Shown piece after piece: positions 1,038 through 29,316 of a DNA stretch of 32,000 nucleotides. Under the pieces are notes generated by a model. That model was not told the origin of the DNA. It worked only from the letters and a program-made list of their open reading frames with translations, and made no database searches. Position numbers and translations under genes: made by a program. The first letter of the stretch is position 1; each line of letters starts with the position of its first letter. Location of the stretch: positions 3,090,001 to 3,122,000 of the forward strand of contig NC_014972.1 of the NCBI RefSeq assembly GCF_000186885.1, written 5' to 3'. This DNA comes from Desulfobulbus propionicus DSM 2032. GTDB taxonomy: Bacteria > Desulfobacterota > Desulfobulbia > Desulfobulbales > Desulfobulbaceae.

Positions 1038-1155
1038 TCCTTTCAGGAAGCCCCCTATCCGCCCCGTAGAGCAAGATTTAACCCTTGGCCTATACCTAAT
1101 ACCCATTGACCTTGTTTTTTGATTGTAGGCCGTTTCTGTGGAGCTTCATTGATGG

Positions 1156-1187
1156 TTGACAGGTGTTCTCCAGGTGTGTTACATAAT
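1156..1187 (+). promoter_or_regulatory. Candidate promoter/operator upstream of the serine recombinase: perfect TTGACA plus two CAGGTGT direct repeats
   Basis: TTGACA sits at 1156-1161. CAGGTGT occurs at 1160-1166 and again at 1171-1177, an 11-bp period. The -10 is only weak (TACATA/CATAAT around 1180-1187). Confidence 0.3.
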
Positions 1188-1233
1188 ATCAAACGTTCGT
1201 ATGAAGGTTTGTAACATACCAGGGAGGAACGCA

Positions 1234-2142: not shown

Positions 2143-2163
2143 AAAAAAACCGAAATCATGGAG

Positions 2164-2193
2164 TGGTCCATATACCCTACGGGTATATGACCA
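2164..2193. terminator. Hairpin between the convergent recombinase and integrase genes
   Basis: TGGTCCATATACCC-TAC-GGGTATATGACCA forms a 13-bp stem with one bulge. A9 at 2141-2149 gives a T-run on the minus strand ~10 nt after the stem. Not a textbook intrinsic terminator. Confidence 0.4.
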
Positions 2194-2209
2194 CCCATGT
2201 GCCACTCAT

Positions 2210-3664: not shown

Positions 3665-3694
3665 GTACCACCCCTGTGTACCTGTTTGTGTACC
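3664..3694 (-). repeat. Three direct repeats of GGTACA(CA) immediately upstream of and overlapping the integrase start codon
   Basis: On the plus strand: TGTACC at 3664-3669, TGTGTACC at 3675-3682 and TGTGTACC at 3687-3694, a 12-13 bp period. They lie between int and the tRNA-proximal end of the element. Confidence 0.8.
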
Positions 3695-3749
3695 AGTGAG
3701 GAATGATTCGGGCAATATATGTTGTAATCTCAACAGATTACAAATAAAA

Positions 3750-3826
3750 TGGTGGCGATGCAGGGACTTGAACCCCGGACACTACGGATATGAGCCGTAT
3801 GCTCTAACCGGCTGAGCTACATCGCC
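3750..3826 (-). tRNA. tRNA-Met (anticodon CAT), elongator type, CCA encoded
   Basis: The reverse complement folds as a cloverleaf: acceptor GGCGATG/CATCGCC, D stem GCTC/GAGC, anticodon stem TACGG/CCGTA with loop CTCATAT, T stem CGGGG/CCCTG with loop TTCAAGT. It is not initiator-like (G1-C72 is paired and there is no GGG/CCC anticodon stem). tRNA-Ile2 (lysidine-modified CAT) cannot be excluded by eye. Confidence 0.9.
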
Positions 3827-3889: not shown

Positions 3890-3932
3890 CAACAAAACTG
3901 TTGAGGGACAAGCCGCTTGTTGATTTTTGTGC

Positions 3933-3975
3933 AAAAAAAAAAGCCCTTTCCCGGCGAGGTCGACGGAAAAGGGCC
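3933..3975 (-). terminator. Rho-independent terminator of groESL
   Basis: Minus strand reads GCCCTTTTCC-GTCGACCTCGCCG-GGAAAGGGC followed by T10, ~40 nt after the groEL stop codon. Confidence 0.8.
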
Positions 3976-4013
3976 AACGTACAGCGACAGTCAGCGCTGG
4001 ACAGCGGGACGGA

Positions 4014-5675
<1,662 letters not shown>

Positions 5676-5703
5676 TTAATTAACGAATGGATGGATATCG
5701 TTT

Positions 5704-5994
5704 TTACGCCTGAACCACACCAAGGATATCATCCTCGCGCATAATGAGAAAATCCTCGCCGTCCAGCTTGACCTCGGTGCCGCCGTATTTGGAGAACAGC
5801 ACGCGATCACCAACGGCCACATCCATGGCCACCCGCTCGCCGGCGTCATTGAGCTTGCCAGGGCCAACGGCGACGATCTCGCCCTCGGCCGGTTTTTCCT
5901 TGGCCGAGTCCGGGATAATGATGCCGCCAGCGGTTTTCTCCTCTCCTTCCAATCGTTTGACCAAGATGCGGTCATTCAATGGACGAATTTTCAT
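5704..5994 (-). CDS. groS: Co-chaperonin GroES (10 kDa)
   Basis: [52 protein letters not shown] lies 6 nt upstream of the ATG at 5994. The ORF-track start at 6084 is a spurious extension. Confidence 0.97.
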
Positions 5995-6196: not shown

Positions 6197-6245
6197 TTGA
6201 AATGAAAGGAATTTGAAAAACAGGAAGGAAAAAACCGGTGGCGGT

Positions 6246-7331
6246 TCAGCCAACCCGGACACGCCATTTGTGGGGGTCTTCCCGATCGCCGAACTGGATG
6301 GCCTGCAACTCGTCGAACAGCCGCTGGGCCAGCGGACCGGTGGTGCCGCCGTTGAGCTGGATGTGCTGGTCACGATAACAGAACTCGCCAACCGGCGAGA
6401 TAACCGCCGCTGTGCCGGTGCCGAAACTCTCCTGCAGGGTGCCGTTCTTGCTGGCGGCGATCACCTCGTCAATGGTGATGCGGCGCTCGCTGACCGGGTA
6501 CCCCCAGTCGCGCGCCAGCTGCAACACCGAATCCCGGGTGATGCCGGGGAGGATCGACCCCTCCAGCGGCGGGGTGATCAACTCGCCGTCGATGAGGAAG
6601 AAGATGTTGGAGGTGCCGACCTCCTCGATGTAGCGACGCTCGACCGCATCGAGCCACAGCACCTGGGTGTAGCCCTTGTCGTGGGCCTCGACCTGGGCCT
6701 TGACGCTGGCCGCGTAGTTGCCGGCGGTCTTGGCGTTGCCCACTCCGCCCGGCACCGCCCGCACGTACTGGTCTTCCACGTAGATTCTGGTCGGGGCAAA
6801 GCCTTCGGCATAGTAGGCGCCGACCGGACAGCAGATGATGAAAAACAGGTACTCCTCGGCCGGACGCAGGCCCAGGGCCGGTTCGGTGGCGATCATGGTC
6901 GGCCGGATATACAGGGTCGCTCCCGGCGTCTTGGGTACCCATTCCTGATCGAGATAGACCATGGCGCGCAGGGCCTGGAGAACGCGGTCCTGCGGAAAGC
7001 GCGGCATGCAGATGCGCAGGGCCGACTGGTTCATGCGGGTGAAATTGTCGGCCGGCCGGAAGAGGAAAATTTGGTCGTCCTTGCTGCGATAGGCCTTCAT
7101 GCCCTCGAAAATGGCCTGCCCATAGTGAAAGACCATGGCCGCCGGATCGAGTTCGAAATTGCGATAGGGTTCGATGACCGCGTCGTGCCAGCCCTGCCGG
7201 CGGTTCCAGCGCATGGTAAACATGTGGTCGGTGAAGAACTGCCCAAACCCCAGACTGTTTTGATCCGGTTTCGGTTTCAACTGATCGGCCGATGCCTTGT
7301 GCAGCGTAACTTCAAGCTCCTTGTTGAACAT
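6246..7331 (-). CDS. ilvE: Branched-chain amino acid aminotransferase (fold type IV, long form)
   Basis: 361 aa containing FGQFFTDHMF, FHYGQAIFEGMKAYR, GGVGNAKTAGNYAAS and GTGTAAVISPV. AAGGTGA RBS upstream. Confidence 0.93.
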   Translation of the reverse strand: MFNKELEVTLHKASADQLKPKPDQNSLGFGQFFTDHMFTMRWNRRQGWHDAVIEPYRNFELDPAAMVFHYGQAIFEGMKAYRSKDDQIFLFRPADNFTRMNQSALRICMPRFPQDRVLQALRAMVYLDQEWVPKTPGATLYIRPTMIATEPALGLRPAEEYLFFIICCPVGAYYAEGFAPTRIYVEDQYVRAVPGGVGNAKTAGNYAASVKAQVEAHDKGYTQVLWLDAVERRYIEEVGTSNIFFLIDGELITPPLEGSILPGITRDSVLQLARDWGYPVSERRITIDEVIAASKNGTLQESFGTGTAAVISPVGEFCYRDQHIQLNGGTTGPLAQRLFDELQAIQFGDREDPHKWRVRVG

Positions 7332-7881
7332 CTTTTCACCTTGTGCTCGCCGGTTTGCTCCAACCGGTTTCGTGTTGTCTTGAACATAGATTGCGGGCCC
7401 GCGGATGCAGGAAAAAGCGGTGCTCTTCGCGCGCCGCCAGGCAGCCCTGACCGGTTGCCCACCCTTTCAACTCAAACCGCGACAATCCGGGGAGAATACT
7501 CCATAGACCTCTTTGGCACAAGCGGCGCGCGCCCATTTCGGCGTAAATTTCGCCAATCACCCGACAGCCGCGGCCTTTTTTCCTGCTCGTGGCGGCCGAC
7601 AACGATCAGGCCGTGGTTGATGACCGCAAGCCCGGCCAGAGCCGGTGACAGCCTCAGGCAAAGGCTCGGCAACAATGCGGCATCGCAAATTTTTACAGTC
7701 TCTTCTCCATGCGGTTAAAAAATTTGACAACCCTCTCCGGTGGTGAGTGAATAGGCAAGAGGACCATTCATTCTTCGTCCCAGCAACGACCACACCGGAC
7801 ATGGCCCCCACCATGGCGGTTTCTGGCTTGTTTTCATGTCGTTGTTGGGCCGCTCACCCATTCATTGCACAAGAGGTAGGT

Positions 7882-10455: not shown

Positions 10456-11049
10456 TCACCCTCCCTGGCGGCCATTGTAAATAACCGGATTCGTCGCGGC
10501 AAACTCCCGAAACCCCTTTAACGCCTCCTCCCGCATCACCCCCTCGATCAGTTCAATGCCCCGGTCGGCCAGCTCCCTCCGCCAGTGCTCCGGCATCGGA
10601 CCCTCGTCAAAGCCGGTGATGGCCATCATCTCGGGATCGGCGCCGGCGATGACCAGCGAGCGGATGCCGGACCAGAGCACGGCCCCAAAACACATGGCGC
10701 AGGGGCTCCAGTTGACCACCAGTTGGTGCGCGGGCAGACCGGGCCCGCCGAGGTCGTAGACGCCGAGCATCTGCTGAGCGAGCGTCAGGGCCGTGATCTC
10801 GGCATGGGCCGAGGAGCAGTTGAGCGGTATCACCCGGTTGACGCCAATCACTATCAGCTTGCCGGAATCGCGCTCAAAAACGCCGGCGCTAAAAGGCCCG
10901 CCGCTCTGGTGCTCGGTGTTGAGACGGGCAAAGCGGAGCACCGCCGCCATGCGGTCTTCCAGGCGCGGCAGGTACTCGGGCACATGGAGCAGTTCGGCTG
11001 GAGCCCAATCCGGCAGATCGAGGATGAAACGGGGCGGGGTGGTCGGCAT
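10456..11049 (-). CDS. Cytidine/deoxycytidylate deaminase-family zinc enzyme (nucleoside/nucleobase deaminase)
   Basis: 197 aa with the zinc motifs SAHAEITAL (H-A-E) and SPCAMCFGAV (PCxxC). The start at 11049 has GGAG 8 nt upstream. The longer ORF-track version (to 11496) overlaps the upstream gene and is rejected. Confidence 0.8.
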   Translation of the reverse strand: MPTTPPRFILDLPDWAPAELLHVPEYLPRLEDRMAAVLRFARLNTEHQSGGPFSAGVFERDSGKLIVIGVNRVIPLNCSSAHAEITALTLAQQMLGVYDLGGPGLPAHQLVVNWSPCAMCFGAVLWSGIRSLVIAGADPEMMAITGFDEGPMPEHWRRELADRGIELIEGVMREEALKGFREFAATNPVIYNGRQGG

Positions 11050-11084
11050 GACGAAATCTCCGGTGAGGGTGGAAAGGGTAGGTG

Positions 11085-11441
11085 TCAAGCCCCCATGATC
11101 TTCTTGCGAAAGAGGAAAAAGACCGCGCCCAGCAGACAGAGCCCGGCCCAGAGGTAGTCCAGAGTGAGCTTTTCCTTGAGATAGAGCACGGAAAAGGGCA
11201 CGAAGATCGACAGGGTGATGACCTCCTGGAGGATCTTGAGCTGGCCGACGGACATCACATCGTGGCCGATGCGGTTGGCGGGCACCTGGAGCAGGTATTC
11301 CAGGAGGGCAATGCCCCAGCTGACCAGGGCGGCGATGATCCACGGCTTGTGCGACAAACTCTTGAGATGGCCGTACCAGGCAAAGGTCATGAAGATGTTG
11401 CTTGCCGACAACAGGGCAATGGTCAGGGTGTAGCGGTTCAT
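11085..11441 (-). CDS. DMT-superfamily small membrane protein (DUF486-type)
   Basis: 118 aa with NIFMTFAWYGHLK, LEYLLQVPANRIG and QLKILQEVITL, a characteristic DUF486 pattern. GAGGAGAG RBS. It lies 35 nt upstream of the deaminase gene, so the two are probably an operon. Confidence 0.75.
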   Translation of the reverse strand: MNRYTLTIALLSASNIFMTFAWYGHLKSLSHKPWIIAALVSWGIALLEYLLQVPANRIGHDVMSVGQLKILQEVITLSIFVPFSVLYLKEKLTLDYLWAGLCLLGAVFFLFRKKIMGA

Positions 11442-11576
11442 GGTGCTCTCCTCGCTGAAGGCGAGAGGTGGAGATGACGCGGCCGGTTGACCGCACCAGG
11501 GCGGATCGTTTGCGTTCGCCGCAAATGGGTTATAGTAGCACCCCTCCAGCCGATTTCAAGGGAGAAACCGCGCGGC

Positions 11577-11614
11577 GGCCCGACCGGCCCGACCGGCCCG
11601 ACCGGCCCGACCGG
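11577..11614. repeat. Tandem 9-bp repeat (GGCCCGACC) x4 in the intergenic leader upstream of the 1,419-aa ORF
   Basis: Read directly: four perfect contiguous units at 11577-11612 plus a partial unit. Non-coding position between divergent genes. Confidence 0.9.
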
Positions 11615-11702
11615 GCAAAACTCCTGCTGACTTTCCGGGGCAAGCTTTATACAATAGATACGTTGTGCTGTTTCTCCGTTCTCTCAACGTCCGAGGTTGC
11701 CC

Positions 11703-14700
11703 ATGCCCGCCGATTCCTGTCCGTTGCCCCTTGCCTCCGATGCCCTCAAGGCCAATCTGCGTGAAACCGCCGCCCCGGTGGTGATCAATCCCGCCTACCT
11801 GCCGCTGCGTGACGCGGTCTGCCGCTTCCGGGGCATCCTGGGCAAGCTCGACACCCTGCTCTACGAAATCAGCCACCCCTTCCGCAACTGGAAACTGCTC
11901 ATCCCCGAGCTGCGGGCCTATGTGCTCAAAAACAGCAACCACTACCGCGATCATGAGCAGGGGCCCGAGGCCTTCGCCTTGTTCATGGCCATTTTCTTCG
12001 ACGCGCTCAAGGATTCGGGCCGCAACGAGCAGCTGCTGCAGCGCATTCTCGAAGCCATGCTCGCCTATGCCGACAAGCTGATCCTCTCGCTCGACAGCCC
12101 GGCCCTGTTTCGCTACCAAGCGGTCTTCACCGAATTTTTCACCCGCCTGCGGGAATTGGACCGGACCGAACCGCAGGTGATGCTCTCCATCGTCCAAGGT
12201 CATCATCCCATCCGCAAGATCGTGCAACAGGTGCTCGGCCTGCGCAAACAGCAGCCGCAGCAGCCCTATGATCTCCAGGCACTGGCCCTCTTGCTCCGTA
12301 CCCTCCTCATCCGCACCTATCAGTATTGGCTGAACGAAGAGGATCCGCTGCCGTGGTTCGAGCGGCAATGCGGCGACTACTGCCGCCAGTGGCACGGCCA
12401 GGATCTGCTGTTGTCCATCTCCCATCAACGGATCGCCGAATGCCTTCGCACATTAGAGGCCATCGATTTTGCCGCCGATTACCAGGCCGGCCTGGAGCAA
12501 CTCCTTGCCCTGCCCGCCCACATGGACCTGGTTCGCTTGTACAAGGAGATCCCGGCCAAGATGGTGGCGGTCGAGGCGGCCAGCGAATCCTCGGCCAACT
12601 TCGTCGAGAACCGCAAGCTGCTCTTTTTGTTCCGCATCATGGAAACCGCCGGCCTGTTTTTGATCCACGAGGAGACCCTGCGCGAGATCAACCGCTCGCT
12701 GGTGCAGTTGATCCGCAAGCAGAGCTTCGAGGAGATCGAGCAGTTCTTCGTCACCACCTTCCACCTGCTCAAGGCCAATGTCCGCCGCTACCCGCACACC
12801 TCGCTGCAATGCATCCAGGTGATCGGCAACGAGGTATTCAAGCGCGGCAACTCCCGCCTGGTCGAGGCCTTTTTGTGGGAGGCGGTGCGCTTTGGCTTCC
12901 AGTACGCGAACGTGCGCGGCGTGGACGAGGACTGGCAGCCCATCGCCAACCCGGCCCATCTGACCAACATTCGTGTCTGGCTCAACCTGATCGAGCAGGA
13001 GCCCAAGTGGTGCTCGACCCTGTTTTCGGCCCTGATCATCAACCTGCGGCTGTCGGGTACCTGCGTGCGCGACACCGACCTGTTCCAGCGCGACATCACC
13101 GAACTGCTCAACCATCCCATCGGCCCGATCTACAACCTGGCCAAGCAGTTCACCAAGCTGATGCCGGTCTTTTTCAACGAGATCGGCGCCGAGGGCGAGC
13201 TGCGCGACGTGTCCACCGAACTCGACGAGATTCACAAACGCAAGGACATCCTCGTCCACTTCCTGCGCAAGCAGGCCCATGTGGAGTCGAGCAACCTGAT
13301 CGTCGGTTTCATCGAAGCCATCTTCACCTTCTGGATCACCCTCGATCAGAGCTACCTGCGCGAATACCTGCCCGACGAGGTGCTGCGCCAAGTGGAAACC
13401 AGCGGCCCCTTTGTCGACGACCAACATGAACTGGCGGCCCGGATCAAGAAGGAACTGCGTTTCACCCGCATGGCCCACATTCTCGCCTGGGACGACGACG
13501 AACGGCAGCAGTTCCTTGACCGCCAGCAGGATCTCTCGGAAGTGGAACGGCGGCGATTCGCCCTGTTGGTGCGGATGTACAAGCTCTTGCACCTCAAGTA
13601 CAATCTCAGCCTGCCCGAGATCCAGAGCCAGCTGCACCACGCCATCAATGCCGGCTTCCCCGAGTTGGCCCGCCTGCTCGACGTGCTCAGGGAAAACGAC
13701 CCGATCCATTGCCTCGATGCCCTGCTCGACGAACTCGAACACCTGCAGGAAATCATCCTCAGTCCAGACAAGTTCGAGCCCAAGGAGGAGATTTATTACA
13801 AGCGCCACATCGCGGTCGACATTCCCTCGGTCTACGGCCGCTATTCCGAACGCAAATTCGATGCCCTCGGCCTGACCTTCCGCCTGGAGAGCCTGGCCAA
13901 CGTCTACCTGGAGCGGCTCTTTTCCACCGTCAACCTGAGTTTCATCACCCAAGCGACCTTCATCCGCATCCTCAAGTGTCTGCGGCTCTTTACCCGCGCC
14001 CTGCAGATCGACGGCATCTCCAGCCGCCGCCTGGACACCTACATCAGCCTGCTGGCCACCTCGATCGGCATTCGCCGCTTTTCCTATACCCAACACCTCG
14101 ACATCATGCGCGGCCTGTCCGAAGGGGTCAAGGACATCATCTACGCCTACTACACCAACATCCACCAGAACAACCTCTCCATCATCGTGCCGCAAATCGG
14201 CAAGGACAACCTGCTGCCCAAGTACCACGGGTCCTGGGACGAGAAAAACATGCCCGAGACCGTGCTCCGCCTCTCGGAAACCTTTTTCCGCGACCTGATT
14301 TCCACCACCTTCGGCCTGCAGCACCTGGACAACTTCATCGGCAAGGTCATTGGCACCCTGGAGGCGCAAAAGGACATTCTCGACGAGAAGACGCTCGATC
14401 TGCTGATGACCTACAACCCGGAAAAGGCGATCAGCAGCCTCCATGCCGAAAACCTGCGCACCCACAACCTGATCCACCTGGGCAACAAGGGCTTCAATCT
14501 GGTGGTGCTGACCCGCGACAAGCTGCCGGTGCCGCCGGCCTTCATCATCACCACCGAGGTCTTCCGCTGCTATCGGGCGATCCGCAAGTTCGAGCGGGCC
14601 CGCGACGAATACATGCGGCGGGTGCGGGCCGCGGTCACCGGCATCGAGCAGATGACCGGCCTGGTGTTCGGCTCGCCGGAGCGGCCGCTGCTGCTGTCGG

Positions 14701-15962
14701 TGCGCAGCGGCGCAGCCATCTCCATGCCCGGCATCATGTCCACCATCCACAATGTCGGCGCCAACGAGGAGATGGTCGAGGAGTATGTGGCCCTCCATCC
14801 GGAGGCCAAATACTTTGCCTGGGACAACTTCCGCCGCTTTCTTCAATCCTGGGGCATGGCCAACGGCATGGAGCGCGAGGACTTCCAGGAGCTGATGAAC
14901 ACGCACAAACGTCAGCATCAGGTGCATTACAAGCGCGATTTTTCGCCCGAGCAGATGCGCCAGCTGGCCCTCAACTACCAGCAGGCGGTCAAGGGCCGCG
15001 GCTTCGGCATGCCCGAGGACCCCTGGTTGCAGCTGATCGGCGCGGTGGACATGGTGTTCGACAGCTGGCACACGCCCAAGGCCCAGGAATACCGCCGCCT
15101 GATGGGTGTATCCGACGACTGGGGCACGGCGGTCATCGTCCAGACCATGGTGTTCGGCAATCTCAGCTCCCAGGCGGGCAGCGGGGTGCTGTTCACCGCT
15201 CATCCCTATCGCAAGGTGCGGCGGGTGGCCCTGTGGGGCGATTACGCCACCGGCGACCAGGGCGAGGACATTGTTTCCGGCCTGGTCACCAGTCACCCGA
15301 TATCGGTGGAGCAGGCAGAGATCGACGGCCGTGACGAGAACAAGAGTTTGGAGCGTCGCTTTCCCAAGGTCTACCAGCGGCTTTTGGAAATCAGCCGCGA
15401 TCTGGTCTACGAAAAGGAGTGGAATCCGCAGGAAATCGAGTTCACCTTCGAGGGGCCGGAACCGGAACAGCTCTATCTGCTCCAGACCCGCGACATGATC
15501 ACCATCAAGAAGAAGGAGCATCTCAACGTCTTCGTCGATTCCGACCTGGCCCACAAGGCGATCCTCGCCAAGGGGATCGGCGTGTCCGGGTCGGCGATGA
15601 GCGGCAAGGCGGTGTTCAACGAGGACAACATCAGCCAGTTGCGCCGGGAGGAGCCGGGCACGCCGCTGATCCTCATTCGCCGCGACACCGTGCCCGAGGA
15701 TATCCGCGAAATTTCCCTGGCCGACGGGCTGGTGACCTCGCGCGGCGGGCAGACCTCGCACGCCTCGGTGGTGGCCACCCGGCTGGAGAAGACCTGCGTG
15801 GTCGGCTGCCGTGACATGCAGGTGGTGGAAACCGAGGAGTATGCCGAGATCAACGGCACGCGCATCACCTTCGGCACCCCGATTGCCATCGACGGCCGCC
15901 ACGGCCTGCTGATCGAGGGCAACTTCCCGCTGCGCGAGGAGGTGCACATTCTGCCTTTATAA
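11703..15962 (+). CDS. Large PPDK/PEP-synthase-related protein: ~900-aa unknown N-terminal region, ATP-grasp nucleotide-binding domain and phosphohistidine swivel domain, with no PEP/pyruvate-binding TIM-barrel domain
   Basis: 1,419 aa. From ~aa 912 (nt ~14440) the sequence follows the PPDK N-terminal half: LGNKGFNL..LPVPPAFIITTEVF, LLLSVRSGAAISMPGIMSTIHNVG, GTAVIVQTMVFGN, GDQGEDIVSG, EIEFTFE..LYLLQTRD. The swivel domain GLVTSRGGQTSHASVVATRLEKTCVVGC follows, with the His codon at 15759-15761. The ORF stops ~65 aa later. ATG at 11703 with GAGG 6 nt upstream. Confidence 0.85.
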   Translation: MPADSCPLPLASDALKANLRETAAPVVINPAYLPLRDAVCRFRGILGKLDTLLYEISHPFRNWKLLIPELRAYVLKNSNHYRDHEQGPEAFALFMAIFFDALKDSGRNEQLLQRILEAMLAYADKLILSLDSPALFRYQAVFTEFFTRLRELDRTEPQVMLSIVQGHHPIRKIVQQVLGLRKQQPQQPYDLQALALLLRTLLIRTYQYWLNEEDPLPWFERQCGDYCRQWHGQDLLLSISHQRIAECLRTLEAIDFAADYQAGLEQLLALPAHMDLVRLYKEIPAKMVAVEAASESSANFVENRKLLFLFRIMETAGLFLIHEETLREINRSLVQLIRKQSFEEIEQFFVTTFHLLKANVRRYPHTSLQCIQVIGNEVFKRGNSRLVEAFLWEAVRFGFQYANVRGVDEDWQPIANPAHLTNIRVWLNLIEQEPKWCSTLFSALIINLRLSGTCVRDTDLFQRDITELLNHPIGPIYNLAKQFTKLMPVFFNEIGAEGELRDVSTELDEIHKRKDILVHFLRKQAHVESSNLIVGFIEAIFTFWITLDQSYLREYLPDEVLRQVETSGPFVDDQHELAARIKKELRFTRMAHILAWDDDERQQFLDRQQDLSEVERRRFALLVRMYKLLHLKYNLSLPEIQSQLHHAINAGFPELARLLDVLRENDPIHCLDALLDELEHLQEIILSPDKFEPKEEIYYKRHIAVDIPSVYGRYSERKFDALGLTFRLESLANVYLERLFSTVNLSFITQATFIRILKCLRLFTRALQIDGISSRRLDTYISLLATSIGIRRFSYTQHLDIMRGLSEGVKDIIYAYYTNIHQNNLSIIVPQIGKDNLLPKYHGSWDEKNMPETVLRLSETFFRDLISTTFGLQHLDNFIGKVIGTLEAQKDILDEKTLDLLMTYNPEKAISSLHAENLRTHNLIHLGNKGFNLVVLTRDKLPVPPAFIITTEVFRCYRAIRKFERARDEYMRRVRAAVTGIEQMTGLVFGSPERPLLLSVRSGAAISMPGIMSTIHNVGANEEMVEEYVALHPEAKYFAWDNFRRFLQSWGMANGMEREDFQELMNTHKRQHQVHYKRDFSPEQMRQLALNYQQAVKGRGFGMPEDPWLQLIGAVDMVFDSWHTPKAQEYRRLMGVSDDWGTAVIVQTMVFGNLSSQAGSGVLFTAHPYRKVRRVALWGDYATGDQGEDIVSGLVTSHPISVEQAEIDGRDENKSLERRFPKVYQRLLEISRDLVYEKEWNPQEIEFTFEGPEPEQLYLLQTRDMITIKKKEHLNVFVDSDLAHKAILAKGIGVSGSAMSGKAVFNEDNISQLRREEPGTPLILIRRDTVPEDIREISLADGLVTSRGGQTSHASVVATRLEKTCVVGCRDMQVVETEEYAEINGTRITFGTPIAIDGRHGLLIEGNFPLREEVHILPL

Positions 15963-16064
15963 CCCGCCTGCTCGGACTTATAGTAGACCCTAAATCATGA
16001 TCGCCAGCGTCCCCCCAATAGCCGGTGCGCTGGCCTGTTTCTTTTCTCTGCCCGGTCACCTGCC

Positions 16065-19007
16065 ATGAACAGCCCCAGCCCTTTCCCCCCCGATCAATCC
16101 ATTCACTGCTTCACGGTCCAGGACATGAGCTGCGAACACTGCCAAGCCCGGGTGGAAGGGGCGGCGCGGTCTGTGGAGGGAGCGCGCGAGGCGCGGGTTG
16201 ACCTGACGGCCGGAATGTTGACCGTGCGCGGTGGCGATCCGCAAGCCATCCTCCGGGCGGTGGAGGAGGCCGGCTATCCGATCGAACAGATTGACGCCCC
16301 GCGACCTGGCTGCCCGCTGGCGGAAACGGTCTCGTCTCCCGCCGTTTCACAGCCGCCGTCCGCCGCAGACCGCTATCTGCTGCGGGTGGACGACATGCAC
16401 TGCGCCAGCTGCGTGGCCCGGGTGGAACAGGCCATCCTTGCCGTGGCGGGAGTGCGCGAGGCGGCGGTCAACCTGGTGGACAGGAGCGCCAGCGTGGTCG
16501 GCGGCGACCCGATCAAGGTGGTCGAAGCGGTGAACCAGGCGGGATACGGGACCTCGCTGCTTGAGGAGCAGGGACACACCTCTGCCGGGGATCGGTACGA
16601 GATCGACATCCTCGGCATGCACTGCGCCAGCTGCGTGGCGCGGGTGGAACAGGCCATCCTTGCCCTCCCCGGCGTTACCGGGGCCGTGGTCAACCTGATC
16701 GAAAAAAAGGCCCAGGTGCAAGGCGGCGACCCGGAACAGGTGGTGCGGGCCATTGTCGATCAAGGCTATGGAGCCTCGCTGCGGCACCAAACAACCGCCG
16801 ACACCTTTTTCCTGACCCTGCAGCCGCAGCCGGATGCCGACGAATTGGCACAGGTTCGCGAGATTCTGCTCGCCCTGGATCCTGCCACGGAGATGAGCGT
16901 GGACAACGGGCGACTGCGCGTCTCCACCTCTCAGCACCCGGCGGATGTGCTGCTGCGGCTGACCGATATCGGCTATCAGGTGACCCTGGAGGAATCCTTC
17001 ACCGACCCGGCCATCAGCCAGGCCGAGGAGACCTGGCAGGAAATCAGGCGCTCCTGGCGGCGGGCCCTGCTCGCCGGCCTGATGGGGTTCGGCCTCATGG
17101 CCGGCCACATGAGCGGACTGTTTCCCCATCTTCACGAAGGCCGGCTGTTCTGGGCCGGGGCCGCCCTGCTCTGTTTGTGCACCATGCTCTACAGCGGCCG
17201 CAACTACTTTATTGGCGCCTGGAAGCAGGCCCGCCACGGCGCGGCCAACATGGATACCCTGGTGGCCCTGGGCACCGGCGCGGCATGGCTGTCGTCAGTG
17301 CTGGTCATCGCTGATCCGCACTTCATCCCCGGCGCGGCCGATTATCTCTACCTCGATGCCGCGGTGATGATCCTCGCCTTTCTCCAGCTGGGCCATGTCC
17401 TTGAAACCAAGGCCAAACGGACCACCAGCGAGGCCATCGGCGCCCTGGTGGGCTTAAGGGCGCGCACCGCCTGGGTAATCCGCGCCAGCGGCCAGGTCGA
17501 GATCCCGGTGTCGCTGTTGCGCCTGGGCGACCGGGTGCGGGTCAAACCCGGCGAGAAGGTGCCCATTGACGGCGAAATCGTCGAGGGCCGAACCACCATC
17601 GACGAATCGATGCTCACCGGCGAGCCGCTGGCCGTGGCCCGCGAGATCGGCGATCCGGTCACCGGCGGCACCATCAACCGCTCCGGCGCCTTTATCCTCC
17701 GGGTCACCCGCTTGGGCGACGATACCACCCTGGCGCGGATCATCCGCATGGTGCACACGGCGCAGATGAGCAAGCCGCCCATCGGCCGGCTGGTCGACCG
17801 CATTGCCGGGGTCTTTGTGCCGGTGGTGATCACCATCAGCCTGGTCAGCTTTTTCGCCTGGTGGAGTTTTGCCCAGGAGTTGGCGCTTGCCCATGGATTG
17901 ACCGCGGCCATCGCGGTGCTGGTCATCGCCTGTCCCTGCGCCCTTGGCTTGGCGACGCCGATCGCCATCATGGTCGGCACCAGCCGGGCGGCCCAATGCA
18001 ACGTCCTCATCCGCAACAGCGACGCCCTGCAGACCGCCTCGACCCTGACCCATGTGGTGGTCGACAAGACCGGCACCCTGACCCAAGGCAAACCGGCGGT
18101 GACCGCCATTATGCCGGTGGCCGGCATGCGCCAGGACGAGGTGCTGCTGTGGGCGGCCAGCCTGGAGAGCGGCTCCGAGCATCCGCTGGCCGAGGCGGTG
18201 CTGAGCGCGCAACTGGAGCGCGGCGAACCGCTGCGCACCCTGGACAACTTCACCGCCATCCCCGGCCGGGGAGTGCAGGCGGAGCATGCCGGCGTCCGAT
18301 ATCTGCTGGGCAACCACCTGTTCCTCGACGAACAGGGGTTGGCCCTGCCTGCCGGGCTCCGGACCGAGGCCGAACACCAGGCGGCCCGGGGCGGCACCCC
18401 GGTCTGGCTGGCCCGTGGCACGGAGGTGATGGGCCTGTTGATCCTCAAGGATCCGGTGCGCCCGGATTCGGCGGCGGCGGTTGCCGCCCTCCAGCGGCAG
18501 GGCATCACGGTGGTGATGTGCAGCGGCGACAACCGGGCGACCGCCGAGGCCGTGGCCCGCGAAGTGGGGATTACCGAGGTGCACAGCGAAATTTTGCCGG
18601 AGCAGAAACTGGAGGTCATCCAGGCCCTGCAGCAGCAGGGGTGCAAGGTTGGCATGGTCGGCGACGGGGTCAACGATGCCCCGGCCCTGGCCCAGGCCGA
18701 TACCGGTTTTGCCCTGGGGAGCGGCACCGACGTGGCCATCGAGAACGCCGACATCACCCTCACCGGCGACTCGCTCCTGCTGGTGGCCGACGCCATCGCC
18801 ATCTCCACCGCCACCATCCGCAACATCCGGCAGAACCTGTTCGGCGCCTTCATCTACAACGTCATCGGCATTCCTTTGGCGGCCGGCCTGTTCTATCCAC
18901 TCACCGGCTGGCAACTCGAGCCGATGTTCGCCAGCGCCGCCATGGCCCTGTCCTCGGTGACCGTGGTCACCAATGCCAACCGGCTGCGTTTTTTTCGACC
19001 GCGATGA
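16065..19007 (+). CDS. copA: Copper-translocating P1B-type ATPase with three N-terminal HMA (CxxC) domains
   Basis: 980 aa. MSCEHCQARVE, then MHCASCVARVE twice. Also CPC (ACPCALGLATP), DKTGTLT, GDGVNDAP and TGEP. Confidence 0.93.
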   Translation: MNSPSPFPPDQSIHCFTVQDMSCEHCQARVEGAARSVEGAREARVDLTAGMLTVRGGDPQAILRAVEEAGYPIEQIDAPRPGCPLAETVSSPAVSQPPSAADRYLLRVDDMHCASCVARVEQAILAVAGVREAAVNLVDRSASVVGGDPIKVVEAVNQAGYGTSLLEEQGHTSAGDRYEIDILGMHCASCVARVEQAILALPGVTGAVVNLIEKKAQVQGGDPEQVVRAIVDQGYGASLRHQTTADTFFLTLQPQPDADELAQVREILLALDPATEMSVDNGRLRVSTSQHPADVLLRLTDIGYQVTLEESFTDPAISQAEETWQEIRRSWRRALLAGLMGFGLMAGHMSGLFPHLHEGRLFWAGAALLCLCTMLYSGRNYFIGAWKQARHGAANMDTLVALGTGAAWLSSVLVIADPHFIPGAADYLYLDAAVMILAFLQLGHVLETKAKRTTSEAIGALVGLRARTAWVIRASGQVEIPVSLLRLGDRVRVKPGEKVPIDGEIVEGRTTIDESMLTGEPLAVAREIGDPVTGGTINRSGAFILRVTRLGDDTTLARIIRMVHTAQMSKPPIGRLVDRIAGVFVPVVITISLVSFFAWWSFAQELALAHGLTAAIAVLVIACPCALGLATPIAIMVGTSRAAQCNVLIRNSDALQTASTLTHVVVDKTGTLTQGKPAVTAIMPVAGMRQDEVLLWAASLESGSEHPLAEAVLSAQLERGEPLRTLDNFTAIPGRGVQAEHAGVRYLLGNHLFLDEQGLALPAGLRTEAEHQAARGGTPVWLARGTEVMGLLILKDPVRPDSAAAVAALQRQGITVVMCSGDNRATAEAVAREVGITEVHSEILPEQKLEVIQALQQQGCKVGMVGDGVNDAPALAQADTGFALGSGTDVAIENADITLTGDSLLLVADAIAISTATIRNIRQNLFGAFIYNVIGIPLAAGLFYPLTGWQLEPMFASAAMALSSVTVVTNANRLRFFRPR
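16395..16664 (+). repeat. 48-bp near-identical (47/48) direct repeat inside copA, covering the CxxC loop of HMA domains 2 and 3
   Basis: 16395-16442 and 16617-16664 (ATGCACTGCGCCAGCTGCGTGGC[C/G]CGGGTGGAACAGGCCATCCTTGCC). The flanking codons of the two domains are much more diverged. Confidence 0.9.
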
Positions 19008-20026: not shown

Positions 20027-20058
20027 AAAAAACGGGAGGCAGATGTCTGCCTCCCGTT
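20025..20058 (-). terminator. Strong hairpin between convergent genes; reads as a rho-independent terminator on the minus strand (fprA side)
   Basis: Perfect 12-bp stem AACGGGAGGCAG / CTGCCTCCCGTT with a 4-nt loop. A8 precedes it on the plus strand, which gives T8 after the stem on the minus strand. Confidence 0.6.
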
Positions 20059-20194
20059 GTCATCCCCGCCTCAACGCGGCGCGCGTTTTTTCCAATGCGC
20101 TTTCAAGGTGTCATGTATCCGTGGGGTGGACACGCGTTTTTGGTGTAAGCCCACCTCTACAAGAAAAAAGGCGCCTCTTGCAGGCCCAGGCGGA

Positions 20195-21421
20195 TTACTT
20201 GGTGAACTCGATCACCGCGTCGCAGTACTCTTCCACCGCCTTCTGGATGGCGGCCTTGTCGGCGTCGGTGGGGGCGCCCTGCCACTCGTAGTGGCCCAGC
20301 TTGTCCCAGCCGGACTTTTCGGTCTTGGCCTCGAAATCCTTCTGCGCGCCGCCGACCCACCCGAACGAGCCGAAACGGAACACCTTCTTGTTGGTCACCT
20401 TCTTGACCTGCAGCTCCTCGATCACATGGGCCATGGGCGGGAACATCTTGTACTCGTAGGTGGGCATGCCGAAGATCAGGCCGGCGGATTTCCAGGCACT
20501 GGCCAGGATGTAGCCAATCTCGTCGCCCGGCACCTGGAACACATGCACCGGGATGTTCCGTTTACGCAGGGTCTCGATCACCAGCCCCAGCACCTGCTTG
20601 GTGTTGCCGTACATGGAACTCCACACCACGGTCACCTCGCGCTCGGCCGGCCCTTTGCTGTACTCGGCATAACGTTTGTAGAGATCGATGATCACCGCCG
20701 GATTGTCGCGCCAGATGATGCCGTGCGAAGGGCAGATCACCTTGACGTTCAGACCGCCCAGCTTTTCCAGCCCCTTGAGCACAAAGGGCGAGAAGGTGGC
20801 AACGATGTTGGCGTAGTAACGCAGGGCCTCTTCCTCGAAGAACTTGTGTTTTTCCGAGGAGATCTGATCGTCGAAAATCGCGTTCTCGTCAATGCTGCCG
20901 TAGGAGCCGAAGGCGTCGCAGGAAAAGAGAATCCCCCGCTTGCGCTCGTAGGTCATCATGGTCTCGGGCCAATGGATGTTGGGGGTATCGAAGAACTGCA
21001 GCTCGTAATCGCCCACCGTCAGCACCATGCCGTCGGCGATGGCGATGGCCCGCTCGGCCGGCACCTCGGCAAAGGCCTGGAGCAGCGGAATGGCTTTCTT
21101 GGTGCAGTAGATGACCGCCTTGCTGTTTTGCTTGCAGAACTCGCGCAGCCAGCCCGAATGGTCCGGCTCCATGTGGTTGACGATGAGGATGTCGATATCC
21201 TCGACGCCCAAAGTCGCGCCGCCCAGCTGCTGGGTGATTTCCTGGGGGAAGTTGAAGATATCCTGGGTGAGGTCGATCATGACGTTCTTTTCCGCCTTGA
21301 TCAGGTAGCCGTTGATGGAAATGCCGTGGGGAATCGGCCAGATGCCCTCGAACAGATAGTTTTTGTCCTCGATGTTGACGGAAAGACGATAGATGTCGTC
21401 GACCACTTTCTTGATATGCAT
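20195..21421 (-). CDS. FprA-family flavodiiron protein (metallo-beta-lactamase-like domain plus flavodoxin domain; O2/NO reductase)
   Basis: 408 aa. Di-iron motif VNHMEPDHSG (HxExDH). Flavodoxin motif VVWSSMYGNTKQ. GGAG RBS. Confidence 0.9.
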   Translation of the reverse strand: MHIKKVVDDIYRLSVNIEDKNYLFEGIWPIPHGISINGYLIKAEKNVMIDLTQDIFNFPQEITQQLGGATLGVEDIDILIVNHMEPDHSGWLREFCKQNSKAVIYCTKKAIPLLQAFAEVPAERAIAIADGMVLTVGDYELQFFDTPNIHWPETMMTYERKRGILFSCDAFGSYGSIDENAIFDDQISSEKHKFFEEEALRYYANIVATFSPFVLKGLEKLGGLNVKVICPSHGIIWRDNPAVIIDLYKRYAEYSKGPAEREVTVVWSSMYGNTKQVLGLVIETLRKRNIPVHVFQVPGDEIGYILASAWKSAGLIFGMPTYEYKMFPPMAHVIEELQVKKVTNKKVFRFGSFGWVGGAQKDFEAKTEKSGWDKLGHYEWQGAPTDADKAAIQKAVEEYCDAVIEFTK

Positions 21422-21582
21422 TGTTCAGTACTCCGATCGCAAACGTTGGCTGAGGTTCATTCTTCAGGGCGAAGCTTATCGAGGCTCGCCGGAAAGCTTC
21501 GTACCATACGCCGGTTAGGGGAAAATTTCCAGACGCAAAATGGGGCGATGAGCCAAGCGGAAACGCGGCCCGCACGCTGGGG

Positions 21583-21840
21583 TCACGATGGCGGAAACCC
21601 GGAATCGGAGTCCCGAAGGAAGGCGAAACGGGGCTGAAGTTGTCCGTTCACCTCGACCTGTTCATGGAACATGGTTAGGGGACGAACCCACAACCCCGAT
21701 TCGTTGTACAGGGGGCGATAGACAACCAGCGGCTCAAGGGTTTCGCTGTGGCGGGCCACACCCAGCACCTCGTATTCCCCGCCCTTGTAATGACGGTAAC
21801 GCCCCAGGGCTATGGCGGGCAGCGGTGGCAGGTCACTCAT
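21583..21840 (-). CDS. DUF1653-family small protein
   Basis: GRYRHYKGGEYEVLGVARHSETLEPLVVYRPLY is the characteristic DUF1653 core. An alternative start at 21903 would overlap the upstream stop codon as ATGA. Confidence 0.7.
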   Translation of the reverse strand: MSDLPPLPAIALGRYRHYKGGEYEVLGVARHSETLEPLVVYRPLYNESGLWVRPLTMFHEQVEVNGQLQPRFAFLRDSDSGFPPS

Positions 21841-21899
21841 GGAGGAACGCTCCGTTGGTTGTTGCGTTGACGCTTCCGAGTGGATGGCCGGCGGTCGCA

Positions 21900-22304
21900 T
21901 CATTCCCAGCCGATGACATCGTACCCTCGTTCCTGCAGGCAGCGGGTCATGAAGTTTTTGAACACAGGGGTCGGCTGCGAGGCCTGAATGATGCCGTGCA
22001 CCAGCCCCGCGGCCGCGCCGGTGGCGGCACCGATACCGATTCCCCGCCCGAGGTTGCCGGTCACCGCGCCCGCCGCACCACCGACCACGGCACCCCCCGC
22101 GCCGCCAACCGCCGTGCTTTTGGCTGCCGCGAGTCCCTCCGGGGATTTAACGTAGCGATCGGCCAGCTCCTCGCATTCCGCCACATCCTGCTGAGCCCGA
22201 GCTTCCCCGACCGACTGGAGATGGGCGTTGGGGTACAACACCGGGCCCTTGGCACTGCAACCCGTGAGCACGGCAACCGCGACTATCAGCATCAGCTTGT
22301 TCAT
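21900..22304 (-). CDS. Lipoprotein with a glycine-zipper domain
   Basis: Signal peptide with lipobox (AVLTGC). Gly/Ala-zipper VGGAGGAVVGGAAGAVTGNLGRGIGIGAATGAAAG. GAGGAGG RBS. Confidence 0.75.
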   Translation of the reverse strand: MNKLMLIVAVAVLTGCSAKGPVLYPNAHLQSVGEARAQQDVAECEELADRYVKSPEGLAAAKSTAVGGAGGAVVGGAAGAVTGNLGRGIGIGAATGAAAGLVHGIIQASQPTPVFKNFMTRCLQERGYDVIGWE

Positions 22305-22837
22305 CTCTCCGACCTCCTCATGGTGTTTTCGCTTGTCTGTTCATCATCCCGCAAGACAGATCCCCGAAACCAGGGCCTGACAGCGGGAAACGCAATCACG
22401 CACTTAGGCTTTATTGTATTCGGTGTGGCTGAACGAACAAGAAGAAGGATTCATCCTCAGCGTAAATTTCATGGGAATGCGGCATAAGGATATATGTCAT
22501 GTCCTCGAAATTTCGCCATTCGTCACTTAAAAAGCTTAACAATTTCCCCGACAGAACAATTCCACATTACCGGAATTAATCAAAAATCTTCAATGGCGGC
22601 AAGATTAACACTCAATTTTAAATAAATACATCAAGTGCACCTCAATAATTCTCACCAATTATTCCTAAAAATCGGAATAATTGTTTCTTTGCAGATTCAA
22701 CCACAAGAAACACACAACTTGAATTCAATCTGTACATTCAATAAGTTGAAAATTTACCAATTCGCAATAAAAAAACGGAACGCCTGTTGCAGGCGATTAC
22801 TTGATTGTTTTTTATCAATATTTTCCAGGAGGATATA

Positions 22838-23440
22838 ATGAAAAAAGTATTTTTGGCAATGGCATGCGCAACCATGGTAAGCTGGGCGGGGTCCGCCTCC
22901 GCTGATGATTATGATTTTTCAGGGACCATGATGTACCACAACAGCGTGCTAACGTATTCGTTTACCACAGATACCGATACCACAGTAACATTGTTCAGCT
23001 CTTCATGGGATGACGGAGGATTCGACCCCATGCTGGGATTGTGGGATAGTGACGGGGATTTAATTTATTTTCAGGATGATGGCCACAACACAGGATCGAC
23101 TGTGTCGAATGGGTCTGCTTATGATCATGGGGAGTGGGATTCCTATTACGATGCCGCTGTATCAGCTGGAACATATTTTGTCACTATTACGACCTACGCA
23201 AACTTTAATATGGGACCGCATTTATCCGATGGATTTGATTATGACGATGAGACGCCCATCAATCTTGAGTCTTGGTATGAACCAGCGAATGGGTATAAGC
23301 AAGATTTCTTTGCATTTCATGTTCTGGGTGCGACTTCGGCAAACCAAGTTGACCCGGTACCAGAACCAACTACACTGCTCCTTTTTGGAACCGGTTTAGC
23401 CGGACTGACAGCTCTGAGTCGCAGGCGAGTGAATAGGTAA
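22838..23440 (+). CDS. Secreted PEP-CTERM-anchored protein (acidic, Asp/Tyr/Trp-rich domain)
   Basis: Signal peptide MKKVFLAMACATMVSWAGSASA. C-terminal sorting signal VPEPTTLLLFGTGLAGLTALSRRR. AGGAGGA RBS 5 nt upstream. The gene and its 5' flank are strikingly AT-rich compared with the rest of the window. Confidence 0.85.
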   Translation: MKKVFLAMACATMVSWAGSASADDYDFSGTMMYHNSVLTYSFTTDTDTTVTLFSSSWDDGGFDPMLGLWDSDGDLIYFQDDGHNTGSTVSNGSAYDHGEWDSYYDAAVSAGTYFVTITTYANFNMGPHLSDGFDYDDETPINLESWYEPANGYKQDFFAFHVLGATSANQVDPVPEPTTLLLFGTGLAGLTALSRRRVNR

Positions 23441-25603: not shown

Positions 25604-25627
25604 AACGGGTTCCTTTGCCGTACGGGC

Positions 25628-27013: not shown

Positions 27014-27043
27014 GATGGTCTCCTTGCGCGTTGAAAGCGGAGG

Positions 27044-28402: not shown

Positions 28403-28446
28403 GATCAATCCCCCTTCACTGGATGACAACTGTCTTGCCCCTTCAA

Positions 28447-28462
28447 GGCAATCCACGTGCCA
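28447..28462 (-). promoter_or_regulatory. Sigma-54 (-24/-12) promoter of nifENB
   Basis: Minus strand reads TGGCAC-GTGGA-TTGCC, matching the consensus TGGCAC-N5-TTGCW. The predicted TSS is near 28436, 34 nt upstream of the nifE start. An A/T tract (28471-28495) lies just upstream. Confidence 0.65.
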
Positions 28463-28498
28463 CGGCGGCATTTTTTTAAAAAACGCATAAAACTGGAA

Positions 28499-28514
28499 TG
28501 TTACACAGAAAACA
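28499..28514. promoter_or_regulatory. TGT-N10-ACA motif (NifA-type UAS candidate 1)
   Basis: TGTTACACAGAAAACA, centred about -71 relative to the predicted TSS. This is a low-information motif and rather close to the promoter for a UAS. Confidence 0.35.
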
Positions 28515-28548
28515 CAGGACATTCACCGTACCGGGGCGTCCTGGTTTT

Positions 28549-29211: not shown

Positions 29212-29316
29212 GCCAACGCCGCGGCCTACCGCCGACACCGTGCTCTTTTCCTGTTTTTCTGCTACGATCGTTTGCATCAATCAGCAAACAACCAAGGCGC
29301 GTGGGGAGGGCAGGCG

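Follow-up and report, generated by a model that had tools for sequence, protein, structure and literature searches.

The 32,000-nucleotide stretch of the Desulfobulbus propionicus DSM 2032 genome analysed here (contig NC_014972.1, positions 3,090,001 to 3,122,000; hereafter the window, in which all positions are numbered unless another locus is named) carries on its + strand a giant gene that encodes half of a pyruvate phosphate dikinase (PPDK), fused to a long region of its own. The open reading frame (ORF) could start at TTG 11697 or at ATG 11703 and ends at 15962; the ATG is the likely start, because M1 is nearly invariant among the homologues and a GAGG lies 8 nt upstream. The predicted protein of 1419 residues consists of an N-terminal module of about 915 amino acids (the N-module), followed by the two domains through which PPDK passes phosphate from ATP to a histidine (Table 1). 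GC content around the gene is about 61%. A 1164-amino-acid ORF (12453-15947, - strand) is antisense to the gene, and several shorter ORFs overlap as well. Since the homology and domain evidence all falls on the + strand, the long antisense ORF can almost certainly be put down to the GC richness of the coding sequence.

Table 1. Features of the giant dikinase gene and its flanking signals, in window coordinates.
Feature	Position	Strand	Basis
Sigma-70-like promoter candidate, CTGACT-17-TACAAT	11627..11655	+	consensus match only; 48 nt 5' of the ATG
Complete ORF, giant half-PPDK dikinase	11703..15962	+	1419 codons plus stop, uninterrupted frame
N-module, aa 1-300	11703..12602	+	helical in the model; least conserved part, mean column conservation 0.15-0.33
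N-module hot spot 1, aa 395-540	12885..13322	+	conservation 0.45-0.65, on a par with the best parts of the PPDK half
N-module hot spot 2, aa 681-730, with the sole β-hairpin (694-715)	13743..13892	+	conservation and models
N-module helical stalk into the ATP-grasp domain, aa 731-915	13893..14447	+	invariant G771, R863, D876
ATP-grasp nucleotide-binding domain (PPDK_N), aa 921-1270	14463..15512	+	Pfam, NCBIfam and phmmer matches; conservation
Swivel phosphohistidine domain (PEP-utilizers), aa 1285-1412	15555..15938	+	Pfam 1322-1387, E 2e-16; alignment to the PPDK central domain
Catalytic His1353 codon, CAC, in GGQTSH	15759..15761	+	His kept in 54/55 family members
Weak terminator-like hairpin	16021..16034	+	between the dikinase gene and the downstream copA-type ATPase gene

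The C-terminal part of the protein is clearly related to PPDK. In phmmer searches of the PDB, residues 921-1412 aligned with residues 16-514 of the Clostridium symbiosum enzyme (E 8e-75): the ATP-grasp portion corresponded to PPDK residues 16-340, and the swivel portion (residues 1287-1407) also aligned to the isolated PPDK central domain 2fm4. Pfam detected PPDK_N (PF01326, E 2e-29) in three stretches, the best at 973-1205, and PEP-utilizers (PF00391); the TIM barrel domain that binds phosphoenolpyruvate (PEP) or pyruvate, PEP-utilizers_C (PF02896), gave no Pfam match even at E<=1. An earlier reading made from the sequence alone (the sequence-only reading) had assigned the last ~500 residues to the ATP-grasp and swivel domains of PPDK, located the catalytic TSH histidine and its codon, noted the absence of the barrel and foretold where the Pfam matches would fall; the searches bore it out on every one of these points. 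The protein ends 66 amino acids past His1353 (about 65 had been counted), within what in PPDK is the linker to the TIM barrel, and the missing domain is not supplied by any neighbouring gene in the window or in the Pfam-annotated loci described below.

The residues that PPDK needs for the relay have been kept. In an alignment of 55 diverse full-length family members, K929, R1001, E1244, E1246, Q1261 and R1263 of the ATP/Mg site were conserved at 95-100% (96-100% when these six are taken by themselves), as were G1348, G1349, T1351, S1352 and H1353 of the GG-TSH motif; neither the ATP-grasp residues nor the swivel histidine are degenerate in the homologues. From the motifs and the published numbering of PPDK, we take K929 to be the equivalent of PPDK K22, R1001 that of R92, E1244/E1246 those of D321/E323 and Q1261/R1263 those of Q335/R337. 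Scores against the curated NCBIfam models were 352.9 bits for PPDK (TIGR01828, cut-off 843.45), 308 for the actinobacterial short PPDK (NF004531, cut-off 456), 84.7 and 93.5 for PEP synthase (TIGR01418, cut-off 739.75, and NF005057, cut-off 598) and 39.8 for rifamycin phosphotransferase (NF041857, cut-off 999), the last with a match in the ATP-grasp region only. The relay half is much nearer to PPDK than to PEP synthase, yet it falls below every curated cut-off. Judged by its conserved residues, the protein has very probably retained the PPDK-type histidine relay (ATP -> His~PP -> His~P).

The N-module is a different matter. Residues 1-915 are rich in Leu (14.9%), Arg (7.4%) and Glu (7.4%) and matched no Pfam (E<=1) or NCBIfam model; in a search of PDB sequences with an N-module profile, no match fell below E 0.25. 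The AlphaFold2 model, computed from a 53-sequence alignment (predicted local distance difference test score, pLDDT, 86.7; predicted template-modelling score, pTM, 0.77), contains about 45 helices and a single β-hairpin (694-715), in agreement with the ~900 residues of Leu/Glu/Arg-rich, all-helical sequence described earlier. A confident all-alpha model excludes a cryptic TIM barrel in this region. With Foldseek against the PDB, the whole N-module found only generic solenoids of the HEAT/TPR/karyopherin type, at template-modelling (TM) scores of 0.08-0.18, and a separate AlphaFold2 model of the conserved core (residues 395-760; all-alpha, pLDDT 88.4) found no match better than E 0.5. Pfam, the PDB profile search, AlphaFold2 and Foldseek were thus all negative for a barrel or any other characterised domain within residues 1-900, and the conserved core appears to be a new fold.

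Conservation within the N-module is concentrated in two hot spots. Residues 441-520 and 681-720 reach values of 0.56-0.65, matching the best parts of the catalytic half; many distant homologue matches begin to align only at about residue 300. The invariant residues are H419, D457, D459, P488, E497, G498, R501, D508, D515, H519, R522, K523 and H526 in the first hot spot and K700-R701-H702, I707-P708-S709, Y711, G712, Y714 and E716 in the second, and K632 and Y633 are invariant across phyla as well. Mostly charged residues or histidines, they are placed by the models on loops, at helix termini and on the hairpin. Over the 55 members, median identity was 0.40 in the N-module core and 0.43 in the catalytic half, and the N-module holds 36 of the 78 near-invariant residues. 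As these 36 are again mostly charged or His, a phosphotransfer or ligand site fits better than a passive scaffold. The combination of an acidic cluster with a basic and histidine-rich one would resemble a phosphotransfer site that depends on Mg and takes an anionic ligand.

The same architecture recurs widely. A search with the N-terminal 920 amino acids alone returned 1159 homologues. The best 120 of these belong to Desulfobulbus, Desulfogranum, Desulfolithobacter and two genera of cable bacteria, Electrothrix and Electronema; they are 66-89% identical, and nearly all measure 1412-1444 amino acids and have both PPDK domains. An HMMER scan made exhaustively over 1.84 billion representatives gave 598 clusters (50% identity) with E<=1e-3, of which 213 reached E<=1e-30; the full-length members listed are 30-60% identical across the whole N-module and 1335-1540 amino acids long. 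When one genome per species was scanned, relatives appeared in at least 594 species. The giant dikinase was found across the sampled Desulfobulbales genera, cable bacteria included, and other carriers are Magnetococcus marinus MC-1, Thermodesulfobacterium geofontis, Syntrophobacteraceae, Desulfotignum, Desulfobacterium, Myxococcota, Bacteroidales, Cloacimonadota and Marinimicrobia. Every scanned full-length member carries the same two PPDK domains. The odd-length matches scanned, considered as possible alternative architectures or stand-alone N-modules, turned out to have the same architecture or to be fragments or hemerythrin fusions. The window protein has every invariant residue of the family, and its N-module is 26-89% identical to those of members from several phyla. 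It is an intact member of a large, multi-phylum and uncharacterised PPDK-derived family. The sequence-only reading had proposed a dikinase or phosphotransferase whose different substrate or partner is set by a novel N-terminal module. That proposal is supported, because residues 1-900 hold no characterised domain, the ORF is not an assembly fusion and the relay residues are intact in the homologues.

Databases (JGI/IMG, NCBI) label these proteins "pyruvate,orthophosphate dikinase", "phosphoenolpyruvate synthase" or "PEP/pyruvate-binding domain-containing protein". Our literature searches found no paper describing the giant half-PPDK family, and brought up VadK, which is discussed below. Some members have an additional N-terminal hemerythrin (HHE cation-binding) domain, for example at our locus L085 (8001-12623; P0299/P0156, 1540 amino acids), the one such locus examined, where no GAPDH gene is adjacent; the fusion suggests sensing of O2, iron or NO.

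Gene neighbourhoods were compared in two sets of loci. The Desulfobulbales context was derived from our own ORF calls and clustering at 76 loci; for the diverse set, a metagenome scan aimed at distant clades added 80 loci, and 87 diverse loci were compared. The ORF calls are heuristic (longest non-overlapping ORFs), and key loci were corroborated by existing Pfam-annotated gene calls. A gene for type I glyceraldehyde-3-phosphate dehydrogenase (GAPDH) lies directly upstream on the same strand at 28 of the 76 Desulfobulbales loci and within four genes at 38, the usual block being aroK-aroC-glgA-gap-giant. In distant members (26-41% identical), which come from Marinimicrobia, deltaproteobacterial metagenome-assembled genomes and metagenome contigs without assignment, the gene directly downstream is a long GAPDH-like one (gapL, encoding 381-423 amino acids). 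GAPDH is the sole widely conserved neighbour in the diverse set (59 of 87 loci, the next-best gene cluster reaching 9); neither enolase nor pyruvate-metabolising genes nor PDRP is the conserved partner there. Where at least 1.3 kb was available on both sides, a GAPDH homologue was directly adjacent at 34 of 46 loci in the diverse set and at 23 of 57 in the Desulfobulbales. All together, these data show that the giant family is genetically coupled to phosphorylating GAPDH, as a tendency of the family and not as a universal rule.

The linkage takes four forms: giant-gapL, gap-giant-gapL, and two in which a standard gap lies upstream, either divergent from the giant gene or on its strand. In T. 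geofontis (L172, 6997-13405) the genes gap (333 amino acids), giant (1386) and gapL (415) follow one another with a 2-nt spacer and a 4-nt overlap, and both GAPDH paralogues score slightly under the TIGR01534 cut-off; in M. marinus MC-1 the giant gene is followed by gapL. The three-gene unit gap-giant-gapL, in which stop and start codons overlap or almost touch, was also observed at L120, L121, L139, L160 and L166. Every one of the 39 long partner GAPDHs retains residues equivalent to Ser148, Cys149, Thr150, His176, Thr179, Arg195, Thr208, Gly209, Arg231, Asn313 and Glu314. Most score just under the TIGR01534 cut-off, and they add about 80 amino acids in insertions (13, 8, 9, 8 and 24 amino acids), the one of about 24 sitting right before the C-terminal helix. 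As all catalytic and phosphate-site residues are kept, the long partners are expected to be catalytically competent phosphorylating GAPDHs with extra surface. Moreover, the retention of Cys149, His176, both phosphate sites and Asn313/Glu314 in all 39 suggests that the metabolite shared with the giant protein belongs to the chemistry of glyceraldehyde 3-phosphate (GAP) and 1,3-bisphosphoglycerate (1,3-BPG). No phosphoglycerate kinase (PGK) gene (PF00162) was present in the 12 Pfam-annotated loci. Examples of the long subfamily, in which the Asp that contacts the NAD ribose is mostly Glu, lie at L087 (10175-11446) and L171 (12399-13634). The sequence-only reading had seen no hint of function in the neighbourhood of the gene; this holds for the window, where no GAPDH gene was found among the scanned ORFs, and for its genus, but it fails for the family as a whole, in which the GAPDH linkage is repeatedly rearranged.

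Other neighbours were considered and set aside. A copA-type copper ATPase gene follows the dikinase gene in the window, in Desulfolithobacter and at 10 loci overall, all within a few Desulfobulbales genera, and we treat it as inherited synteny because of this restriction. The genes lepA, hisS, relA/spoT, dprA and UPF0102, each at 4-9 diverse loci, are housekeeping genes. In Electrothrix (L002, L003, L025, L028, L030 and L031) the dikinase gene is immediately preceded, on the same strand, by a gene for a protein of the histidine-phosphatase superfamily. CobC/PGM-like and under all curated cut-offs, this protein could act either as a phosphomutase-type enzyme or as a phosphatase of phosphohistidine. 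The window has an alanine dehydrogenase gene 13 kb downstream (29272-30447), and at a few other Desulfobulbales loci (L039 12300-13409, L060, L041, L054) such a gene follows the dikinase gene at once or after a few genes, a possible, weak link to pyruvate metabolism.

In the window, the dikinase gene is flanked by a divergent deaminase-like gene (10456-11496, -) and by the copA-type P-type ATPase gene (16065-19007), with a gene for a methyl-accepting chemotaxis protein farther upstream. The promoter candidate in Table 1 (the sequence-only reading had likewise credited the gene with a candidate promoter of its own) is placed in the 206-bp intergenic region shared with the deaminase-like gene. 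Just 5' of it, in the same region, a 9-bp unit (CCGACCGGC) occurs four times in tandem (11580-11615). The number of terminator-like hairpins is not above shuffle expectation, and an Rfam search near the dikinase gene found no regulatory RNA. The window further contains a probable integrative mobile element (240-3826; GC 49-54%, against about 61% around the dikinase gene) with a Rep-like gene (240-1037), a serine recombinase/resolvase gene (1156-2142) and a tyrosine integrase gene with DUF6538 (2210-3733, -) that abuts a tRNA gene (3753-3826, -). A nitrogenase-cofactor-type cluster (24326-28522, -) comprises a radical-SAM/NifB-like gene with a C-terminal NifX-like domain (24326-25603) and two genes of nitrogenase component-1 type, NifE/NifN- or NifD/K-like (25628-27013 and 27044-28522); a related radical-SAM gene lies near the dikinase gene in Electrothrix (L002 15095-16243). 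Long ORFs without Pfam match (605, 501, 526 and 299 amino acids) occupy 3927-5744, 6213-7718 and 20057-22487, and a PEP-CTERM-sorted protein is encoded at 22805-23440.

The giant protein shares the logic of PPDK, PpsA, rifampicin phosphotransferase (RPH), glucan, water dikinase (GWD) and PigC, in which an ATP-grasp domain and a swivelling histidine serve a specificity domain, and it is a member of no characterised family. PPDK itself (C. symbiosum 1KBL/1DIK; EC 2.7.9.1) has the same ATP-grasp and swivel domains in colinear order, with the GGxTSH motif and the ATP/Mg residues kept, and the giant protein most probably performs PPDK-like partial reactions (ATP -> His~PP -> His~P), to judge from these residues. 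Whereas PPDK continues into a C-terminal TIM barrel, the giant protein has its all-alpha N-module and a GAPDH gene partner; of the features that define PPDK, ATP-grasp and swivel histidine are present, the PF02896 barrel and an equivalog-level score are not. PpsA shares the two relay domains but is far more distant (85-93 bits) and has a TIM barrel, so that the giant protein differs from the PEP synthases (TIGR01418/NF005057) in score and barrel alike. The plant enzymes GWD and PWD measure about 1400 amino acids, have a long N-terminal substrate region and relay the β-phosphate through a histidine without a TIM barrel. They are eukaryotic, run in the order N-terminal region, His domain, ATP domain, and recognize their substrate through CBM45 or CBM20. 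The giant protein differs from GWD in having no carbohydrate-binding module (CBM) by Pfam and in placing the ATP-grasp domain before the histidine.

RPH and HpeHI (phenylphosphate synthase) resemble the giant protein in combining an ATP-grasp domain and a swivel histidine at the extreme C-terminus with a unique, non-barrel substrate domain (PMC4844700, PMC12167813), and the rifampicin (RIF)-binding domain of RPH had no structural homologue when solved (PMC4844700). In these enzymes, however, the substrate domain lies between ATP-grasp and swivel, while that of the giant protein is N-terminal to both; their substrates are hydrophobic phenols or antibiotics, and sequence similarity to the giant protein is limited to the ATP-grasp domain. 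RPH gives off inorganic phosphate (Pi) and has an ATP-grasp domain similar to the one in PEP synthase (PMC4844700); no RPH chain was among the Foldseek matches listed, and the giant protein does not belong to the RPH family. PigC, RedH and HapC likewise join PPDK_N and swivel domains to an unrelated third domain for a non-pyruvate substrate (PMC13534948), but this domain is C-terminal and the proteins belong to secondary-metabolite clusters; the NCBIfam prodigiosin-condensing-enzyme matches are weak (49.6 bits against 1350) and lie at the first ~60 amino acids of the giant's ATP-grasp domain.

VadK (Rv1127c of Mycobacterium tuberculosis) is also a PPDK derivative that has lost the PEP/pyruvate domain, has kept ATP-grasp and catalytic histidine and is tied to central-metabolic enzymes. 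It provides experimental proof that a half-PPDK autophosphorylates on histidine (bioRxiv 10.1101/2025.10.30.685616). The sequence prerequisites for such ATP/Mg-dependent autophosphorylation of the swivel histidine are all present in the giant family. VadK has about 490 amino acids and no extra module, and its partners are PrpC and PrpD where that of the giant protein is GAPDH. Nor is the giant protein of VadK type by size and score: it has 1419 amino acids against about 490-534 for the two-domain proteins, and 308 bits against the 456-bit cut-off (NF004531/PRK05878).

We favour the reading that the giant protein is a small-molecule dikinase acting at the GAPDH node, for which we see an even chance, and an equal chance that the N-module is the acceptor site for that small molecule. 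In such an enzyme, ATP would pyrophosphorylate His1353 in the ATP-grasp site with release of AMP; the γ-phosphate would be taken by Pi and leave as pyrophosphate (PPi), the ATP-grasp half being PPDK-like and not PpsA-like. The swivel domain would then bring His~P to a second active site. The conserved N-module cluster would make up that site, in which D457, D459, E497, D508 and D515 would be the likely Mg2+ site and R501, R522, K523, H526, K632, K700, R701 and H702 the anion site. There the phosphate would be passed to a small anionic acceptor at the level of the triose phosphates. That this acceptor is 3-phosphoglycerate (3-PG), with 1,3-BPG as product, is clearly speculative and rather unlikely to be right in detail, yet it gives the most economical candidate reaction: ATP + Pi + 3-PG <-> AMP + PPi + 1,3-BPG, an AMP/PPi-linked counterpart of PGK, whose labile acyl phosphate would be handed to the neighbouring GAPDH. 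The complete proposal, a 3-phosphoglycerate, phosphate dikinase that would be a new enzyme of central carbon metabolism with a new all-alpha catalytic fold, passing its product to a docked GAPDH and bypassing PGK, must be held slightly less probable again.

Several observations are consistent with this proposal. The giant gene is directly downstream of gap in Desulfobulbales and in T. geofontis, and pgk is the usual occupant of that position in gap operons. If the acceptor is 3-PG, the reaction would provide GAPDH with its labile acyl-phosphate substrate or draw it off, and channelling would explain both the tight operons and the partner-specific insertions of the GAPDHs. Transfer from His~P to a carboxylate has a precedent in succinyl-CoA synthetase. 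By analogy, a 3-PG dikinase would relate to PGK as PpsA or PPDK relates to pyruvate kinase, giving an AMP-forming route for low energy charge that would fit the lifestyle of the carriers; we know of no alternative to the PGK step of trunk glycolysis and gluconeogenesis in the phosphorylating direction. Within the superfamily, the RIF-binding domain of RPH (PMC4844700) and HpeH (PMC12167813) are examples of non-barrel third domains that bind small molecules.

Other points weigh against a small-molecule dikinase of this kind. To our knowledge, no PPDK-family enzyme phosphorylates a carboxylate or makes an acyl phosphate, and alpha-solenoid-like architecture is typical of protein-protein scaffolds. 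The hemerythrin sensor domain of some members is more typical of signalling proteins. GAPDH adjacency is missing in the window and at the other loci of the genus Desulfobulbus, which has lost it. Finally, PGK was present in 98.9% of surveyed prokaryote genomes (PMC12525153), so a PGK bypass is not needed to complete the pathway.

The main alternative, which we consider unlikely, is a protein-directed regulator similar to VadK: His1353 would autophosphorylate, and the helical N-module would dock GAPDH or another partner. Through modification or regulation of GAPDH, or by sensing a metabolite or a redox signal, the protein would control flux between glycolysis and gluconeogenesis and make no metabolite. 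VadK (Rv1127c), after losing its PEP/pyruvate domain, autophosphorylates on His422, binds enzymes belonging to the methylcitrate cycle and tunes flux (bioRxiv 10.1101/2025.10.30.685616); the accessible part of the preprint describes no substrate phosphorylated by VadK, and VadK has no N-terminal module comparable to that of the giant protein, whose 308 bits also fall short of the actinobacterial short-PPDK model. The ~80 amino acids of lineage-specific insertions in the partner GAPDH-like proteins could be docking elements, the T. geofontis dikinase gene is flanked by two GAPDH paralogues, and the hemerythrin domain would suit a sensor. The weak Foldseek matches of the N-module are all to HEAT/TPR-type scaffolds, but at TM 0.1-0.18 they are no evidence of homology and the conserved core has no match; moreover, invariant Asp, Glu, Arg, Lys and His on loops would be unusual for a pure scaffold.

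Less probable still is that the databases are functionally right and the protein is a true pyruvate or PEP dikinase in which the N-module is a non-homologous replacement of the TIM barrel. Its ATP-grasp half is nearest to true PPDKs, the carriers are mostly gluconeogenic anaerobes and autotrophs, and the Desulfobulbales block glgA-gap-giant looks gluconeogenic. Yet the names pyruvate,orthophosphate dikinase and PEP synthase result from automatic transfer on the strength of two shared domains (353 of 843 bits for TIGR01828), neither PEP-utilizers_C nor a barrel is present, and the conserved partner is GAPDH and not enolase, a pyruvate-metabolising gene or PDRP. An enolase bypass in cable bacteria was considered and rejected, the family being far broader than cable bacteria and a groundwater cable bacterium having enolase (PMC6976610). 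The GlgA-like glycogen synthase gene found two genes upstream at 36 of the 76 Desulfobulbales loci raises the idea of an alpha-glucan (glycogen) dikinase like plant GWD, with an N-module that binds glycogen. GWD is similarly large and uses the same histidine relay. We regard this as very improbable: the glgA linkage is confined to the Desulfobulbales and absent from the diverse loci, Pfam finds no carbohydrate-binding module, and the domain order is reversed with respect to GWD. That the ORF is spurious, a pseudogene or a chimera made in assembly has a negligible probability. Although the GC-rich region and its 1164-amino-acid opposite-strand ORF show that long chance ORFs occur here, the strong domain matches fall on the + strand ORF, its frame is unbroken, and hundreds of colinear full-length homologues exist in complete genomes and independent assemblies; the homologue, cluster and species-genome searches refute such an artefact.

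The results describe a large conserved family without a characterised member, two thirds of whose length is without a Pfam model, and the N-module core offers a candidate active site. The labels PPDK and PEP synthase may wrongly credit sulfate reducers, cable bacteria, Cloacimonadota and Marinimicrobia with the step from pyruvate to PEP. Taken with VadK, the family suggests that half-PPDKs serve generally as a base on which new phosphotransfer functions are built. Linkage to GAPDH is tight and has arisen repeatedly, in many cases with a dedicated paralogue that has unique insertions. It points to a so far unrecognised reaction, or point of control, at the 3-PG/1,3-BPG/GAP node, which is among the most conserved stretches of metabolism. 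If a 3-phosphoglycerate dikinase does operate there, it would constitute a PGK bypass in energy-limited anaerobes and autotrophs, among them sulfate reducers, cable bacteria, Cloacimonadota, Marinimicrobia and Magnetococcus.

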